DNA from: Thermoanaerobaculia bacterium
Lineage (GTDB): Bacteria > Acidobacteriota > Thermoanaerobaculia > Multivoradales > Multivoraceae
Length of the DNA stretch: 64,000 nt
Assembly (NCBI GenBank): GCA_963666565.1
Contig: OY762911.1
Span: 2,400,001-2,464,000 of the forward strand
Direction of reading: 5' to 3'
Position numbers and translations under genes: made by a program. The notes under the pieces were generated by a model. The model searched no databases. It saw only the letters and a program-made list of their open reading frames with translations, and was not told where the DNA came from. Below are positions 30,740 to 37,005 of the stretch, one piece after another. The stretch's first letter is position 1. Every line of letters begins with the position of its first letter.

Positions 30740-31104
30740 TCCGTTTCTCCCGTCGGTGATCGCCCCGCGCAGCGAAACCGCGGCAACGGGGCGATGGTAC
30801 ATGAGACACCGGCCGCGCGGCGTCGCGCGGACCGTCGCGAGCCGACCATTCGGCTCTATGGATCAAGACGGATTCCGGCCGAGTTCCCCGGCGACACGAG
30901 GGCGACGCCGTTGTCGCGTTGCGCCGGAGTCCGCTCGGCGGTCGTCGAAAGACGGTTCCGTCTGGCTTGACCCCGTCGGGAACCTAGCCATAGTCTTGGC
31001 TAGATCGACACGGTGCGGTTCGGCGCATGCCGCTCTCCGCAACGCCTGCCGCGCTGCGCTCGACCGAGTTCGCCGTCGAGTCGAACTCGCTGGAGGGTGC
31101 TCGA

Positions 31105-31335
31105 ATGACAGTCGTCAACGTTCATGAAGCCAAGACCCAACTCTCGCGGCTGCTGGCTCAGGTCGAGGCCGGGGAGGACGTCGTGATTGCGCGCCGCGGC
31201 GAACCTGTCGTGCGTCTCGTCCGTTGCCGGCCCAAGGTGCGGCGTCAGCCCGACACTCTCAAGGGCCGGGTCGTCGTTCCGGACAGCTTCTTCGATCCTC
31301 TGCCGGACGAAGAGCTTTCCGCCTGGGAACGGTAG
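31105..31335 (+). CDS. Phd/YefM-family antitoxin
   Basis: VNVHEAKTQLSRLL...GEDVVIARRGEPV. Confidence 0.9.
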   Translation: MTVVNVHEAKTQLSRLLAQVEAGEDVVIARRGEPVVRLVRCRPKVRRQPDTLKGRVVVPDSFFDPLPDEELSAWER

Positions 31336-31341
31336 GTCGGC

Positions 31342-31728
31342 GTGAGGGCGCTGCTGGACACCCACGCGCTTCTCTGGTGGGTGGCGGACAGCGCGCGTCT
31401 CTCGGAGACCGCTCGCGGCCTGATTGCCGACGACTCGAACGAGATCCTGGTCAGTGCGGCCTCGGCCTGGGAGATCGCGACGAAGTACCGGCTGGGCAAG
31501 TTGCCGGGAGGCGAAACCGTGGCGGCCGATGTCGTAGGCAGCATCCGGGCACAGGGGTTCACGGAACTCCAGATAAGCGTCGCCGATGCCGAACGCGCCG
31601 GACGCTTGCCCGGGCCGCACCGGGACCCGTTCGACCGGATGCTCATCGCGCAAGCCCTGGCGCGGGACCTGCCGGTCGTGTCGGTGGACGCGATGTTCGA
31701 CCGCTACGCCGTCAACCGGGTTTGGTGA
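31342..31728 (+). CDS. vapC: PIN-domain toxin
   Basis: LLDTHALLW, SAWEI, HRDPFDRMLIAQA. Confidence 0.93.
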   Translation: MRALLDTHALLWWVADSARLSETARGLIADDSNEILVSAASAWEIATKYRLGKLPGGETVAADVVGSIRAQGFTELQISVADAERAGRLPGPHRDPFDRMLIAQALARDLPVVSVDAMFDRYAVNRVW

Positions 31729-31736
31729 GTGTCGGC

Positions 31737-31827
31737 CGGTTCATCCCCGCGTGTGCGGGGAAATGCGGGAGGGCAGAGAGGCAGCTTGTTCCGCGAGCGG
31801 ATCATGACCGTGCCGTTGCGGGGGCGG
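31737..31827 (-). CRISPR. Orphan type I-E-like repeat plus a highly degenerate second copy 61 bp away
   Basis: CGGTTCATCCCCGCGTGTGCGGGGAA at 31737; CGGATCAT...GCGGGG at 31798. Confidence 0.6.
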
Positions 31828-32149
31828 TTCGATGCGTTTGGAGTTGGGCCGTCGTTGCGCCTCGTGCGGTTGCTCGCGAGCGCCGCGCCTGCGCCAAGTC
31901 GTAGCTGGCCTGCATCCGCATCCAATGAACGGCGGTTCCCCAACCGATGTCCTCCAGCGCCAGCGCCATCTTCGCGGAGACGCCGGCCCTGCCGTTCAAC
32001 AGCCGCGACAGAGTTCCGCGTTCGCAGCCGAGGCGCGCCGCCGTCTCGGTCACGCTCCATCCGACGTCGTCCACGTTCTCGCGGACGAGTTCGCCCAGAT
32101 GCGGTGGATCCAACATCGTGCCGACGCGGTCGCTCTCGCGATTGCTCAT
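31802..32149 (-). CDS. higA: HigA-family antitoxin (Xre HTH)
   Basis: PPHLGELVRE, AARLG...TLSRLLNG, MALAL, WMRMQASYDL; GGAGGAGG RBS. Confidence 0.9.
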   Translation of the reverse strand: MSNRESDRVGTMLDPPHLGELVRENVDDVGWSVTETAARLGCERGTLSRLLNGRAGVSAKMALALEDIGWGTAVHWMRMQASYDLAQARRSRATARGATTAQLQTHRTAPATARS

Positions 32150-32165
32150 GGTCCTCCTCCTGCTC

Positions 32166-34032
32166 TAGACTCCTTGAACAAGGGGCGTCTTAACAGTTGA
32201 GTCAAGTTTGGTTCGGGGTGTCCGTGTCGATTCGGCGTGACGGAGGTCGGCCTCAGGCTGCGAGTCGCTGTCCTCGCCAGGCTCGTTGGACGTCGCGGTC
32301 GTAGTTGGCGACGGTTCTTCGTAGCCGGGCGTTGGCTTCCGGGTCGAGGGTGGCGGACATGACGGGGCCGAGCACTCGGGCGTGGGTCCGGTGGTAGGCG
32401 AACGCTACGCGCAGTCCCCAGTCGGTGATCCGGTAGCGGTGGGTGCGGGGGATCCGCTCGATGATTCCCCGCAGTCGCAGCCGGCGCAGGTCGTAGGTCA
32501 TGCGGGAAGGGCCGTAGCGTTCCGGCGGGAGTCCGCACAAAGCGGCGACCGCGGGCCGCAGATCGCGGTTGCGGAAGCCGTTGGGCAGGAGGCTGAAGCG
32601 CAGCAGGGCGGCGAAGAGACTCTGCACCCTGCGGTCTCCGAAGCGAAGCGCCGAAGCGCGCTGACCCGAGATGCACCGCGGACGGTGCAGATCGTCGAGC
32701 GTTTCGGCTCCGAGCAGACAGTCGTGGCTGAGAGTTTGGACGCCGAGCAGGCGTCGGTTGGCGGCGAAGCCGACCTTCTTGAGGTCATCGAGGTTTCTCA
32801 GCAAACGACCGACATCGAAGTCGTAGGTGTCGTTGATCACCGTCTCGGTGCGCAGGGCGCGCCCTTCCTTGTGGTACTGCTTGATGCGCGAGTGCTTGTA
32901 GTCGACGTGCAGCGACGGGGAGACCCCGTCGGTAATGACGCGGGTGCGATACCGCGAGGGGGTGCGTCGCGTGACGCGGCGCTTGAAGATCAACTGCACG
33001 TGCTCGGGCCGTCCCATGTCGAGGTGCTCGCGCAGCACCTCCTCGAAGAAGACCCGACCCTGCACCGGGCGGTCGAAGACCTGGGTCAGGGCGAATTCGG
33101 CCTGGAGGATCGAGACGGCGTAGCGGATGCCCCGCCGCCGGTCGCCGGCGGAGAACGGATGCGGCAGGCGAGCCAGCCACTTGCGCAGCAGCGCGTCGAT
33201 CTTGTCCGCGCCGAACCCGTCGGCGAGCCGCTGCATCGCCTCCGGGTCCGAGCAGCGCAGGATGCCGTTGTCCAGCGACTCGTACTCGATCCCCCGCTTG
33301 CTCAACTGGCGCTTGAGGTACTCGTGTCCGTTGATGCACAGCTTGGCGTTGTAGGGGAAGTACGAGCAGAACTTCAGGAAGAACGGACCGAAGTCGTCGT
33401 CGAACACGTAGAAGTAGTACTGGTTGACCATCGCCGTCGAGTGCACCAGCCACGGATAGCCCGCGTCGGTCGCCGAGTCGTAACGACGCTCGGTACGCAG
33501 CACCCGAGCCTTCTCCTGCGCCTTGCCGACGTACAGCACCCCCTCGCCTCCATGCCACCGGCGAAGGTACTCGCGGGTGCGGTCGTCCTTGCGCTCGCCG
33601 CGCCGAAACGGGACGATGTCGGTCCGATGCTGCCGCGCGTAGCCCTTGATCGCGGCCACGAACCGCCTCGTCATCGGCGCCATCAGCACCGACGACGGCA
33701 CCTGCGCGCCCCGCACCTCCCGGAAGAACCAGGCCGCGCCCGCGCCACGCTGAAGCACCGGTACGTAGACGTTGAGGTACATCCGATCGACGCACTCCAG
33801 CGTCAACGACACATGCTCCTCAAGAACCTCGGCTGCCGTGCGTGCTACCTTCATCAGCGGACTCCGGTCGATGGGCTTCTCACCGGCCAGCTTAAGGCCA
33901 CCTTCGCCGCAGAGCGACAATACGGCGGATTCACTCCGCAGCTGAAGCAGCGACCGGAGTCCGATCGACGCCAAGGCCGACGCCGACCACCGCCGCGAAC
34001 ATGCTCGTCGGTCTGAGGCGAAGCCTCGTTAG
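32166..34032 (-). mobile_element. TIR-less insertion element of about 1.86 kb inserted in the higB stop codon
   Basis: CTA at both junctions (32166-32168, 34030-34032); removal restores DYH-TAG, RBS and higA; hairpins near both ends. Confidence 0.8.
32253..33854 (-). CDS. Putative transposase of an uncharacterised family with C-terminal winged HTH
   Basis: Only large ORF in the element; IKQYHKEGRALRTETVIN; YDLRRLRLRGIIERIPRTHRY wHTH. Confidence 0.7.
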   Translation of the reverse strand: MKVARTAAEVLEEHVSLTLECVDRMYLNVYVPVLQRGAGAAWFFREVRGAQVPSSVLMAPMTRRFVAAIKGYARQHRTDIVPFRRGERKDDRTREYLRRWHGGEGVLYVGKAQEKARVLRTERRYDSATDAGYPWLVHSTAMVNQYYFYVFDDDFGPFFLKFCSYFPYNAKLCINGHEYLKRQLSKRGIEYESLDNGILRCSDPEAMQRLADGFGADKIDALLRKWLARLPHPFSAGDRRRGIRYAVSILQAEFALTQVFDRPVQGRVFFEEVLREHLDMGRPEHVQLIFKRRVTRRTPSRYRTRVITDGVSPSLHVDYKHSRIKQYHKEGRALRTETVINDTYDFDVGRLLRNLDDLKKVGFAANRRLLGVQTLSHDCLLGAETLDDLHRPRCISGQRASALRFGDRRVQSLFAALLRFSLLPNGFRNRDLRPAVAALCGLPPERYGPSRMTYDLRRLRLRGIIERIPRTHRYRITDWGLRVAFAYHRTHARVLGPVMSATLDPEANARLRRTVANYDRDVQRAWRGQRLAA

Positions 34033-34076
34033 TGGTAGTCGATCAGGTCCACGTCCACGGCATCCTCGAATCGGAA
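34029..34076 (-). pseudogene. higB: C-terminal remnant of a HigB/RelE toxin
   Basis: FRFEDAVDVDLIDYH-stop is typical of HigB C-termini; in-frame stop upstream and no start. Confidence 0.75.
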
Positions 34077-34100
34077 CGCGTGCCGAGCAGGTGTCCGGAG

Positions 34101-34289
34101 TCAGCGGAGGAACGAGAGAACCAAGCCCAGGCCGCCCCAGATGAAGTACCCGGCGATCAGGACGACGGCGGCGCCGAAGGCGATGTCGGGGAAGCTGGTC
34201 ACGAAGGAGTGCAGCGCGTACAGGACCGCGCCCAGAGCGACGGCGAGCGCCGCGATGGTCGCAACGACGATGTAGGTCGCCTGCCTCAT
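34101..34289 (-). CDS. Small two-TM membrane protein
   Basis: 62-aa hydrophobic ORF at the array trailer. Confidence 0.5.
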   Translation of the reverse strand: MRQATYIVVATIAALAVALGAVLYALHSFVTSFPDIAFGAAVVLIAGYFIWGGLGLVLSFLR

Positions 34290-34415
34290 GAGGGGACCCT
34301 AGCAGGGCCACCGGTGCGCTGGACCGCACCAATGTGGATGCTGCGGGACGGGGCCGAGGTTCGCTCACTTTCTGAGCGACGTTTGGTTCAGTTTCTGAGC
34401 GATGCCAGCACCGGG

Positions 34416-37005
34416 GGTCTATCCCCGCGGGTGCGGGGGAACCCGCCCGATGGACACCGGCAAGCTGGCGGAGTCGGGTCTATCCCCGCGGGTGCGGGGG
34501 AACCAGGCCGGCCAGCCGATCGGCCACGTTCGCCGGGGGTCTATCCCCGCGGGTGCGGGGGAACCGAGTTCTTCCGGCGCGTGCTGGACGAGGGACTGGG
34601 TCTATCCCCGCGGGTGCGGGGGAACCGTGTACGCGCCGATCACGGGCTCGGAGCCGTCGGGTCTATCCCCGCGGGTGCGGGGGAACCAACCCCGGCGGCG
34701 CCGTCGCCGACGGCAAGGAGGGTCTATCCCCGCGGGTGCGGGGGAACCCCCGCGGCCGTCAGCGCCGTGCCGACCCGCTTGGGTCTATCCCCGCGGGTGC
34801 GGGGGAACCGGCCCGGCCGACGGCCTCTGGTGGGCCGACGTGGGTCTATCCCCGCGGGTGCGGGGGAACCGCAGGATGCGATCAACGCCTGCCGCAAGGC
34901 GGAGGTCTATCCCCGCGGGTGCGGGGGAACCGGCGATCGTTCTGTGCGCCGGAGATCGTCAGCAGGTCTATCCCCGCGGGTGCGGGGGAACCCGCGGATG
35001 GGACGGGCGGTCCGATGCCGTGCTGGGTCTATCCCCGCGGGTGCGGGGGAACCGGACGCCCCGATCGACTACGTCCGGGAGGATCGGGTCTATCCCCGCG
35101 GGTGCGGGGGAACCCTCCCGCAAGTTCCAGAAGGCAGGGGTACGGGGGGTCTATCCCCGCGGGTGCGGGGGAACCGAGGAGCGGCCCGACCTCCCGCGAC
35201 AGCCACTCGGTCTATCCCCGCGGGTGCGGGGGAACCACCGTCGACCTCGAGGGCATCCTGACCATCGAGGGTCTATCCCCGCGGGTGCGGGGGAACCGAG
35301 CGCCCTCACTTCCTCGCCTCCACGGCGTGAGGTCTATCCCCGCGGGTGCGGGGGAACCTACGAGCAGGAGCATGAGAACCGCACGATCGAGGGTCTATCC
35401 CCGCGGGTGCGGGGGAACCGTGGCCTTGGCCAGGTCGCGGGCGAGGTCGTGGGGTCTATCCCCGCGGGTGCGGGGGAACCGCCCCCCTGGCGGAGCCTCA
35501 GGCCCCAGATCAGGGTCTATCCCCGCGGGTGCGGGGGAACCGCCCCGGAACCGATCGGCCGCGTCCTCGCCCTGGGTCTATCCCCGCGGGTGCGGGGGAA
35601 CCGTCTACCAGGGCGCGAACGACGTGACGGACGAGGGTCTATCCCCGCGGGTGCGGGGGAACCCAGGTCGGCGAGGCCATCGACACGGGCGAACGGGGTC
35701 TATCCCCGCGGGTGCGGGGGAACCTGGCGACGACCGACTCCAGCGCGAACATCCCGAGGTCTATCCCCGCGGGTGCGGGGGAACCGAGCGCGCCCAGGGC
35801 GACGCGCCGACGGTCACGGGTCTATCCCCGCGGGTGCGGGGGAACCCTCCTCGCCCCGGAACACGCCGCCGGAGAAGGCGGTCTATCCCCGCGGGTGCGG
35901 GGGAACCACCTTGCACCGGCAGCCCCAGCCGTTCGGAGGGGGTCTATCCCCGCGGGTGCGGGGGAACCTCGCCGGCCTTGATGGCGGCGGCAAGCGCCTT
36001 GGGTCTATCCCCGCGGGTGCGGGGGAACCACGCGGCACCGATGAAGCGAGGAGGAACGATGAGGTCTATCCCCGCGGGTGCGGGGGAACCCGCCGGGCCG
36101 CCATCCTCCGCGACGTACTCGAGGGTCTATCCCCGCGGGTGCGGGGGAACCGGCAGCGACTGGGCGGCGACGGACCGGCTGTTGGGTCTATCCCCGCGGG
36201 TGCGGGGGAACCCGCCTGTTCCTCCACCTCCACGTCGTAGGTCGAGGTCTATCCCCGCGGGTGCGGGGGAACCCAGTCCGTCTGGCCGGCCTGATCCGGC
36301 GGCAGGGGTCTATCCCCGCGGGTGCGGGGGAACCACCAGGGAGCTCGCGTAGCTGGAGAACAGATCGGGTCTATCCCCGCGGGTGCGGGGGAACCCTCGG
36401 CGGGAGCGGCCGGCGTCTCGGACATGGCGGTCTATCCCCGCGGGTGCGGGGGAACCGTGACCTGCCGTTTCCGGCGTCGCAGGGCAACGGGTCTATCCCC
36501 GCGGGTGCGGGGGAACCTAGGCGGGACATACATACATACAACCGCACGGCGGTCTATCCCCGCGGGTGCGGGGGAACCCATCAAAAGGTAAGAGTCAAAG
36601 GATCCAGCAAGGGTCTATCCCCGCGGGTGCGGGGGAACCTGGAGCGATCAGCACGTCGCGTGGTTGCTCGGGGGTCTATCCCCGCGGGTGCGGGGGAACC
36701 GGTGTCGCATGTGGGTCTGGACATCGATCGCGGGGTCTATCCCCGCGGGTGCGGGGGAACCCTGAACGACGCGACTCGCGCGCCGGAGGAGCGGGGTCTA
36801 TCCCCGCGGGTGCGGGGGAACCATGTTCCGGCAGGGAGAGGATCAGGCGCGGAACGGTCTATCCCCGCGGGTGCGGGGGAACCAGCCGCGCCGATTGGTG
36901 GATCGAGCAGGAAGAGGGTCTATCCCCGCGGGTGCGGGGGAACCCTGGTCTTGATCGTCGCAGCGTCGCAAGCGTTGGGTCTATCCCCGCGGGTGCGGGG
37001 GAACC
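34416..37005 (-). CRISPR. Type I-E CRISPR array, 43 repeats and 42 spacers
   Basis: Repeat GGTCTATCCCCGCGGGTGCGGGGGAACC (+ strand), exact 61-bp period; orientation inferred from cas2 and leader. Confidence 0.99.

Follow-up and report, generated by a model that had tools for sequence, protein, structure and literature searches.

A 1.86-kb insertion sequence at CTAG sites in a Thermoanaerobaculia genome and its probable Rep_trans-like transposase

Results

An insertion sequence lies between higA and a remnant of higB

The subject of this study is a single-gene element located in a 64,000-nucleotide stretch of the genome of a Thermoanaerobaculia bacterium (assembly GCA_963666565.1, contig OY762911.1, positions 2,400,001 to 2,464,000 of the forward strand; this whole stretch is called the window, and coordinates refer to it unless another genome or locus is named). 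The element is an insertion sequence of 1864 bp (32167..34030, minus strand), recognized by six copies with identical ends and by empty sites in relatives. The region 32166-34032 has on one side the higA antitoxin gene (31802..32149, minus strand; TIGR02607, E 1.9e-18), now parted from higB by the element, and on the other side the final 23 codons of higB (34032..34100, minus strand). The sole gene of the element consists of 533 codons plus a stop (32253..33854, minus strand) and starts with MKVART. A list of open reading frames (ORFs) extends this gene to a TTG at 33974; the homologues begin at the ATG at 33854, and a GGAG lies 9 nt upstream of that ATG. On the opposite strand a frame of 544 codons is open (32382-34016, plus strand), probably a shadow frame such as often occurs in DNA of 70% G+C.

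A first-pass annotation of this DNA, made from the sequence letters alone, had proposed that the element has exact ends and that its removal restores the junction of higB and higA. Removal of the element indeed gives the proposed junction, and two relatives (L013 and L014) have a single CTAG there. The annotation was also right that insertion at CTA|G left a TAA stop: the stop of the higB remnant after insertion is TAA at 34029-34031 (TAG changed to TAA), and the TAG stop at the target remains a stop because CTA is kept at both junctions. The description of this reading frame as the end of higB holds in part, in that the frame does end at the junction, but what is left of higB is a remnant of 23 codons, whereas relatives carry the full gene. 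The loss of higB is a deletion separate from the insertion, and it leaves higA as an orphan antitoxin. The remnant abuts the stop of a 62-aa predicted membrane ORF (34101-34289).

The limits given for the element presume nicks at CT^A on the gene strand, and shifting both of them by up to 3 nt is equally valid; because CTA/TAG recurs at both junctions, the boundary can be written in several equivalent ways, and the length is 1864 bp whichever notation is chosen. On the gene strand the layout is flank-CT^AACGAGGC...GGAGTCT^AG-flank, that is, the center of a CTAG, and the window reads flank-CT-AACGAGG...GGAGTCT-AG-flank. The target tetranucleotide CTAG occupies 32165..32168 at the gene-distal junction (the right end, RE), and CTAA, the proposed nick site CT^AA, occupies 34029..34032 (minus strand) at the gene-proximal junction (the left end, LE). 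In the orientation of the window, the left junction reads ...C-TAG-ACTCCTTGAACAAGG..., with C before the left TAG in all six copies, and the right junction, ...GAGGCGAAGCCTCGT-TAG-N, is likewise common to all six, with unrelated DNA beyond both junctions. When the two ends of the window element and of its copies were compared, no inverted-repeat similarity was found between them; the ends are unlike, in agreement with the claim that terminal inverted repeats are lacking.

The element is present in six copies and is absent from the same site in relatives

The first-pass annotation had suggested that other copies and empty sites be sought, and both were found. A DNA search of the 4.79-Mb genome yielded six full-length copies (identity range 98.7-100%), so that there are five further copies with the same ends as the window copy; these five have 98.7% identity to it over 1868-1872 bp. 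The transposase reading frame is open in all six.

Empty sites were sought in six same-genus higA loci (L013, L014, L015, L016, L019 and L020). In L013 and L014, higA and higB are contiguous and uninterrupted, with the single CTAG exactly at the position of the element in the window. At the corresponding position L019 has TTAG and L020 has CCAG, and L016 is a higA locus without higB. The empty higA-higB site of L015 has CTAGTG CTAGTG, a 6-nt tandem duplication (around 1785, CTAGTGCTAGTGG), which could be the footprint of an earlier visit of the element or be due to chance. Within the genus only 4 of 42 genomes carry the element, and this sparse occurrence fits a recent horizontal arrival. Because there are six copies in this genome, empty sites in relatives and carriers in so few genomes of the genus, the element is mobile, and it is a genuine, active-looking insertion sequence.

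The assembled contigs of the sequencing runs contained no true empty site of the window locus. A single contig bridged the element, joining 32134 to 34031 through 36 other nucleotides, and was attributed to a paralogous or related higBA locus.

The protein belongs to a very large unannotated family

It was found that the 533-aa protein has at least 8000 scored candidate relatives in a set of 5.8 billion proteins, all at E <= 1e-3; among the 120 matches listed, none had a Pfam domain and the four with a name were each a "hypothetical protein". Among cluster representatives, which were searched exhaustively, 11,012 matched at E <= 1e-3 and 1,225 at E <= 1e-30. The Atlas clusters of the family are labelled "hypothetical protein", and one has HTH_5 in 12% of its members. 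Relatives were also present in 27 plasmid records, annotated as hypothetical or uncharacterized or left unannotated, and in one case assigned to the ArsR family of regulators (H17, 24.6% identity). Among species genomes, 577 confirmed stretches encode a relative. The statistics on related loci given below refer to the 80 of these 577 stretches that were retained (57-92% identity, found with a 12-sequence alignment), which span Acidobacteriota, several proteobacterial classes, Chloroflexota, Planctomycetota, Gemmatimonadota, Verrucomicrobiota and Actinomycetota, with up to seven copies in one genome.

The 533-aa protein had no match in NCBIfam or PHROGs, and Pfam gave only weak winged-helix matches for the protein and for 28 members of the family. 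No DDE, HUH, DEDD or serine-recombinase model of Pfam or NCBIfam matched the protein, as expected from the first-pass annotation, which had seen no such motif. Searches of PDB sequences with the protein and with a profile returned chance-level matches only (CD8 beta, ribosomal protein S2, and MarR-type regulators on the C-terminal part). A full-text search of the literature, which included the 24-nt conserved LE string and extended to neither supplements nor ISfinder, yielded no description of the family or of a Rep_trans-like transposase.

The C terminus is AA in 121 of 135 full-length members and LAA in 96 of them, and the window protein ends in LAA (32253-32261). This tail resembles the ssrA degradation tag recognized by ClpX, which suggests proteolytic control or remodelling of the enzyme; LAA could place the enzyme under the control of ClpXP.

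The two ends are different and are conserved across phyla

The ends were compared with the gene on the plus strand, and boundaries were located copy versus copy in 12 multi-copy genomes or groups. At the gene-proximal boundary, the shared block starts exactly at CTA[A/G] in 7 of the 12 groups; in two groups it starts about 10 nt earlier, two share more than 1.3 kb upstream, and one differs (ACAG/CCAG). At the distal boundary, the block stops at CTAG or 1-3 nt beyond it in 10 of the 12, the exceptions being one block that is 28 nt longer and one group with the last 13 nt duplicated in one copy, which is a tandem duplication of the final 13 nt of the RE (L095:3127-3186).

The LE consensus is CTA[A/G]-CG-[A/G]GGC-NNN-GCC[T/C]C-AG[A/C]CCGACGAG. 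The hairpin motif of the LE is present in 64 of the 75 loci that have at least 230 nt upstream, and the bases directly before the motif are CTAA (35 loci) or CTAG (27) in 62 of the 64, in a search for which the pattern did not demand a preceding CTA[A/G]. In the window this hairpin is GAGGC-TTC-GCCTC (34015..34027, minus strand). Across 42 distinct LE sequences its stem pairs in 210 of 210 cells, compared with 21-57% in slid controls, and the loop varies; one pair changes from A-U to G-C in 3 sequences, and the other four of the five pairs are invariant and therefore uninformative as to covariation. The folding energy of the LE hairpin alone was not significant (z -1.6). Just inside the hairpin lies a conserved box, AGACCGACGAG (34004..34014, minus strand), which is nearly invariant in the 42 LE sequences from many phyla and may be a protein-binding site. 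One lineage has a second, inverted LE hairpin box about 72 nt inside the element (L096:551/623, L097:1310/1384, L098:442/514 and L106:96/169).

The RE is arranged differently, as a box ACTTGACTCA (32198..32207, minus strand, in the window; invariant or nearly so in 31 RE sequences), about 21 variable bases, CAAG, 3-4 bases, and CTAG. From the box through CTAG the RE spans 43 nt in 30 of the 31 sequences, with a 1-nt insertion in one. The first-pass annotation had placed hairpins near both ends, and both are present in the window, but only the gene-proximal one is conserved throughout the family. The RE hairpin, CCTTG-TT-CAAGG (32172..32183, minus strand), occurs in the window and a few relatives, and only its CAAG half is conserved in the family; in the window its fold has z +0.7. 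The consensus of the 31 RE sequences keeps an invariant 4-bp CTTG/CAAG pairing (-0.3 kcal/mol) and has no covariation and no conserved hairpin.

Miniature elements of 93-130 bp, consisting of an LE joined to an RE, were found in three genomes (L034:1207-1340, L041:1240-1340/L042 and L094:1192-1330), where they stand head-to-tail with full copies and have one CTA[A/G] in common with them; at L045:3140-3170 an LE directly follows an RE. Therefore, the ends are the cis-acting parts of the element, and the RE junction is itself a target. The natural RE-LE junctions of L034, L041 and L094, folded as single-stranded DNA, gave no significant structure (z -0.2 to +0.9). An outer 4-bp stem, GTCT/AGAC, that is formed only across the joined RE-LE junction was dropped from consideration as it is not kept in other lineages.

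Solitary LE-like ends occur at seven places in the genome of the window (989218, 1750020, 1761758, 3774143, 3924027, 4377816 and 4451247; the loci include L007-L010). They have 0-5 mismatches in 24 nt and all stop exactly at the element terminus; on their inner side they have 70-155 bp of a different repeat in common. Three of the seven are followed by ACT, which resembles the first bases of the distal end, and one solitary RE-like end is present at 1814965. These solitary ends may be decayed miniature elements or other remnants.

The target is the most under-represented tetranucleotide of the genome

The site CTAG, present at the RE junction of all six copies, is the most under-represented of the 256 tetranucleotides genome-wide, with 1299 sites and an observed/expected ratio of 0.234. 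Therefore, the element aims at a scarce site. TTAG and CTAA are also among the lowest tetranucleotides of the genome. Preferences in the flanking DNA were scored over 71 distinct LE and 59 distinct RE flanks (L001-L006 and L027-L106). An A stands four bases before CTA in 50 of the 71 sites, and downstream of the distal CTAG there is a C or T in 42 of 59 followed by a G in 34 of 59, a preference that resembles the CG following CTA[A/G] in the LE.

In some copies long frames, of 405 and 244 codons for example, end at the junction stop. This hints at insertion into stop codons, a point that the G+C content of third codon positions (GC3) did not settle.

The predicted structure combines a TBP-like domain with a winged helix

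The structure of the protein was predicted by AlphaFold2 with a 28-sequence alignment, with a predicted local distance difference test (pLDDT) score of 87.2 for the whole protein and 90.6 for residues 1-380. These N-terminal residues (32715..33854, minus strand) form long antiparallel strands with helices, and structure matches identify them as a double domain like that of TATA-binding proteins (TBPs). Residues ~382-510 (32325..32711, minus strand) form a DNA-binding domain of the PadR/MarR/HxlR-type winged-helix kind (VIA-align Z 8-9.3, and the weak Pfam winged-helix matches), followed by C-terminal helices.

Residues 1-380 of the model were compared by VIA-align with 48,161 PDB representative chains. 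The whole-domain matches were five TBPs, with Z 7.4-9.0 (best 1mp9_B, Z 9.0, 182 of 189 residues aligned), and the two solved Rep_trans initiators. Of the latter, RepDE (4cwc_A) matched with Z 7.0, a root-mean-square deviation (rmsd) of 4.9 and 180 residues aligned, and RepSTK1 (4cij_A) with Z 7.0, an rmsd of 4.5, 186 residues aligned and 13% identity. The use of AlphaFold and Foldseek had been recommended in the first-pass annotation, and in Foldseek four 4cij chains rank second to fifth (E 1e-3 to 7.5e-3, probability 0.60-0.92). The top Foldseek match, the ARO/CYC di-domain 4xrw (E 1.8e-4 to 5e-4, TM score ~0.2, rmsd ~22 A), is a helix-grip sheet that makes no functional sense, and it was set aside. 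Matches in the BFVD viral library were giant-virus TBPs or TBP-like transcription factors and inovirus replication proteins, including A0A345MNV4 (probability 0.96). In PMC13107129, A0A345MNV4 is named as a PF02486 protein and Rep_trans enzymes are said to have a TBP fold.

Among the 135 full-length members, 131-135 keep each of D23, R24, E114, Y147, Y149, D152, N175, H177, N196, Q251, E253, K320, K325, Y327, K329, R335, E337, N341 and D345 (D23 in 131, K325 in 134, Y327 in 133, K329 in 131, R335 in 134 and E337 in 133). Most of these conserved residues are on predicted strands, often at positions i and i+2, and K325-Q-Y327-H-K329 is on one such strand. A Tn5-like DDE site (D23, D152 and E337) was considered and dropped, the sheet being antiparallel and TBP-like and the matches listed including none that is RNase H-like.

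According to PMC4797284, the active site of RepC/RepDE has Y191, flanked by R189 and K193, and binds the metal through D46, D142 and E214, which are located on three separate strands. The corresponding motifs of the RepC family are SFD46AM, R140-L-D142, R189-I-Y191-N-K193 and R212-V-E214, and the element family has, in the same order, V-D23-R-M, Q251-A-E253 (or D152), K325-Q-Y327-H-K329 and R335-T-E337. The structural alignments start with model residue 16 at RepDE 39 and model residue 15 at RepSTK1 1, from which we infer that D23 of the model would fall on RepDE D46 and RepSTK1 D9 if the first strand is ungapped. In the same model, E253 or D152 could be the counterpart of RepDE D142. E114, Y147/Y149 and D152 are on the pseudo-symmetric half of the predicted TBP-like domain and could constitute a second active site; by analogy, such a site could let one chain handle both ends, like the two tyrosines of the IS91/Helitron enzymes.

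Discussion

Proposed mechanism of transposition

We consider it very likely that the element is autonomous and mobile and that it encodes a new transposase family. The predicted structure and the motifs make it probable that the enzyme is a Rep_trans-like tyrosine nickase. The reading that we favor overall, and hold to be correct on balance, is that of an insertion sequence of a very large unannotated family that uses a Rep_trans-like tyrosine nickase with a winged helix and moves through a single-strand circle. Taken by itself, the specific pathway by a single-strand circle without duplication is tentative, falling a little short of an even chance. Whether the element represents a new mechanistic class of prokaryotic transposon, in which a TBP-fold nickase cuts CT^A, a circle rebuilds a rolling-circle origin and insertion occurs at the center of CTAG without duplication, is in our estimation evenly poised; in such a class the enzyme would be unrelated to DDE, DEDD, HUH, serine, tyrosine-recombinase and Cas1 enzymes.

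In the proposed mechanism, the 533-aa protein would be the transposase, a TBP-fold tyrosine nickase joined to a winged-helix DNA-binding domain. It would nick the gene strand at both ends, the site being CT^A[A/G] at the gene-proximal one and CT^AG at the distal one, with Tyr327 becoming linked to the 5' A and a metal held by Asp23, Glu337 and a third acidic residue. The donor strand would be released, or displaced by replication primed from the 3' OH of the flank. The 3' T of the element would then be joined to the 5' A to give a single-strand circle, in which the junction, a single CTA[A/G] between ...TCAAGGAGT and CGAGGC..., would restore the CT'AA nick site (...TCT^AACG...). Finally, the circle would enter the center of another CT^AG without duplicating the target, and synthesis of the second strand would be left to the host. 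According to PMC9371924, the conserved nick site CT'AA of Rep_trans initiators and MOBT relaxases is part of a GC-rich hairpin, the enzymes bind covalently to the 5' side, and RelSt3 has strand-transfer activity. The nick-and-circle reading at CT^A explains why the ends are unlike, why CTA is kept at both junctions in almost all lineages, why the RE junction attracts further copies, why miniatures made of LE and RE persist, and why a TAG stop stays a stop.

A number of results weigh against this interpretation. The fold scores are middling, since Z 7-8 is what models that lack a clear match typically reach at best; the Rep proteins are outscored by TBPs, a group of non-enzymes, and fold alone shows no function; and in a search with the full-length model 4cij was absent from the 50 best matches. 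At the level of sequence, PF02486 was absent from the Pfam matches of the protein at E <= 1 and from the 16 families matched by 28 members at E <= 0.1, and in the whole genome it had no matches at E <= 0.01, with a positive B. subtilis control. An hhalign comparison of the 28-sequence family with a RepC alignment gave a probability of 0.12, with a narrow template (12 sequences, 81-93% identity), and neither RepDE nor RepSTK1 was among the matches listed when PDB sequences were searched with a profile. The first-pass suggestion that the segment KQYHK...LRTE recalls Rep_trans is borne out by the predicted fold and the motifs, and the sequence-profile tests do not support it. The ends of the element fold no better than shuffles, compared with z -5.3 for the pT181 origin control, and CTA[A/G] stands 2 nt before a 5-bp hairpin, whereas the Rep_trans nick lies in the loop of a strong hairpin. 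The junctions equally fit three descriptions, namely, the center of CT^AG without duplication, a TA duplication in CTAG, and a 3-nt duplication. No circle junction was present in the assembled contigs of four sequencing runs, a search that covered contigs only. The copies are three co-directional and three head-on with replication (n=6, one near the terminus), the direction of replication being taken from the skew, with a minimum near 0.72 Mb and a maximum near 3.2-3.36 Mb. This lack of orientation bias argues against strict IS608-style insertion into the lagging-strand template.

Comparison with known systems

The element would work most like the single-strand and rolling-circle transposons (IS200/IS605, IS91/ISCR and Helitrons) without their HUH enzymes. 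Its enzyme looks most like Rep_trans/MOBT and its domain order most like RepSNJ2, and the sequence-based membership tests all failed. As for the earlier idea of a poorly described single-strand or rolling-circle transposon family, the mobile and unannotated family is real, and the mechanism is one that we infer.

The Rep_trans/MOBT proteins (pT181 RepC/RepD, RepSTK1, inovirus gpII-type proteins, ICEBs1 NicK, ICESt3 RelSt3 and Tn916 Orf20) resemble the putative transposase in its predicted TBP-like two-lobed catalytic domain, in the order of the motifs, with an Asp on the first strand, [R/K]-x-Y-x-K and R-x-E, and in a separate DNA-binding part of helix-turn-helix type. There is also a likeness between the element junction CT-A[A/G] and the CT'AA nick site, and a GC-rich hairpin adjoins the junction of the element. 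They differ in that sequence homology to the element protein is not detectable, that the catalytic domain of the element has ~380 residues compared with ~200 positions in the Pfam model, and that the nick motif of the element is beside the hairpin and not in its loop. The known Rep_trans/MOBT proteins replicate plasmids or phages or start conjugative transfer, and a full-text literature search found none reported to drive transposition.

Rep-Arvir/RepSNJ2 (DUF7845, PF25227) of archaeal pleolipoviruses and plasmids has, according to PMC13107129, the same order of a TBP-like domain, a MarR-like winged helix and a C-terminal part; it too was recognized through structure matches to TBPs and to A0A345MNV4 and not through sequence, and it has a conserved Tyr and acidic residues. 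It differs from the element protein in being archaeal and a proven virus replication initiator, with KHYYM in place of KQYHK, and it is not known as an insertion sequence. PF25227 was not matched at E <= 1 by the 533-aa protein.

The elements of IS200/IS605 (HUH Y1 TnpA; IS608 and ISDra2) share with the present element the lack of inverted repeats and, under the proposed mechanism, of a duplication, as well as unlike ends, a subterminal hairpin, and insertion beside a defined tetranucleotide that one end of the element must itself contain; their single-strand circle is what is proposed here. In contrast, the present element has no Y1_Tnp or HUH match in Pfam or NCBIfam, its protein has 533 aa compared with ~150 aa, only one of its ends has a conserved hairpin, and its copies have no orientation bias with replication. 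Like the present element, IS91/ISCR elements and Helitrons have no inverted repeats, use a short specific insertion sequence, and have unlike ends of which one has a hairpin, and they make no target duplication, as is proposed here. Helitrons insert between A and T, and the present element would insert between the T and A of CTAG; its head-to-tail tandems would fit rolling-circle read-through. It differs in lacking an HUH Y2 domain (Pfam and NCBIfam) and a helicase, and in its different fold.

The IS630/Tc1-mariner elements use DDE enzymes and duplicate TA, in the case of IS630 within CTAG. The CTAG target and junctions that can be read as a TA duplication are points of likeness, whereas the present element lacks terminal inverted repeats, and its protein has neither a DDE domain nor an RNase H-like fold. 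The DEDD transposase of IS110 had no match to the protein in Pfam or NCBIfam. A guide RNA encoded by the element, as in IS110, was considered and dropped, as an Rfam search of 31700-34500 gave only two chance-level matches (E 0.11 and 0.2).

Alternative explanations

The same element might instead move as double-stranded DNA, with staggered cuts in CTAG (C^TAG on both strands) and gap repair that duplicates TA or TAG, by a chemistry unrelated to that of rolling-circle initiators. The C-TA-[element]-TA-G junctions fit a TA duplication in CTAG exactly, and the even orientation of the six copies relative to replication, the missing circle junction in assembled contigs and the missing sequence-level link to Rep_trans would all be in keeping with such a pathway. 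However, the ends are non-inverted and are unlike in sequence and layout throughout the family, which is unusual for enzymes that cut both ends symmetrically, and no RNase H-like or other DDE fold or model was matched. Furthermore, such a pathway would require almost all lineages to have kept a terminal C and an initial A or G in the element for no other purpose than to imitate CTA[A/G] at both junctions (62 of 64 loci), a constancy that a nick-site requirement explains directly. We consider movement as double-stranded DNA unlikely.

The resemblance of the fold and motifs to replication initiators also raises the question of whether the element is a tiny, plasmid-like integrative rolling-circle replicon, with the protein as its replication initiator and a free circle that occasionally integrates at CTAG by nicking and joining. 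The archaeal RepSNJ2, described in PMC13107129 as a proven replication initiator with a TBP-like catalytic domain and a MarR-like winged helix in the same order, would be a precedent, and the longest contigs that carry many of the family members measure ~1.8-2.0 kb, which matches the length of the element. Contigs of ~1.8 kb are, however, also expected from collapsed repeats in short-read assemblies; every copy seen is chromosomal with host DNA on both sides (six here, and up to seven in one genome); no contig of the four sequencing runs has a closed junction; and miniatures of LE and RE are typical of transposons, which leaves the replicon distinctly improbable. That the protein is only a DNA-binding regulator or passenger, with an unlinked enzyme moving the element, might be supposed from the PadR/MarR-type winged helix in its C-terminal part, the annotation of the distant plasmid relative H17 and the HTH_5 matches in one Atlas cluster. 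We regard this as highly improbable, given that it is the sole gene in a 1.86-kb element that no other shared gene accompanies, that the same ends accompany it, across phyla, in those 64 of 75 related loci in which the LE motif was found, and that its N-terminal domain of 380 residues has nearly invariant Asp, Glu, Tyr, Lys and Arg on β-strands, as is typical of a catalytic site. A nickase encoded by the element itself and acting at CT^A is the explanation that we prefer.

Significance

If this interpretation is correct, a very abundant jumping gene, with thousands of clusters in many bacterial phyla, has gone unannotated, its protein being labelled "hypothetical protein" or "regulator". The enzyme superfamilies known to move DNA within genomes are few, and a further one would join them; insertion sequences would then be related by descent to rolling-circle plasmids, to filamentous phages and to the relaxases of conjugative elements. 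Since annotation pipelines miss such elements, the repeats, disrupted genes and breaks in assemblies that they produce are left without an explanation. With its short palindromic target and its stop-preserving junctions, the element offers a clean system for studying nickase-driven DNA integration, and a small, single-protein, CTAG-specific integrase could serve as a tool.

Additional features near the element

A second toxin-antitoxin pair lies beside higA at 31027-31728, consisting of a Phd/YefM antitoxin (E 1.9e-10) and a PIN-domain toxin (E 6.7e-18). On the other side of the element, a CRISPR array with at least 41 repeats and a 61-bp period (34415-36900) starts about 385 bp away. A solitary repeat-like sequence at 31733-31763, between the PIN gene and higA, matched the CRISPR arrays of related genomes.

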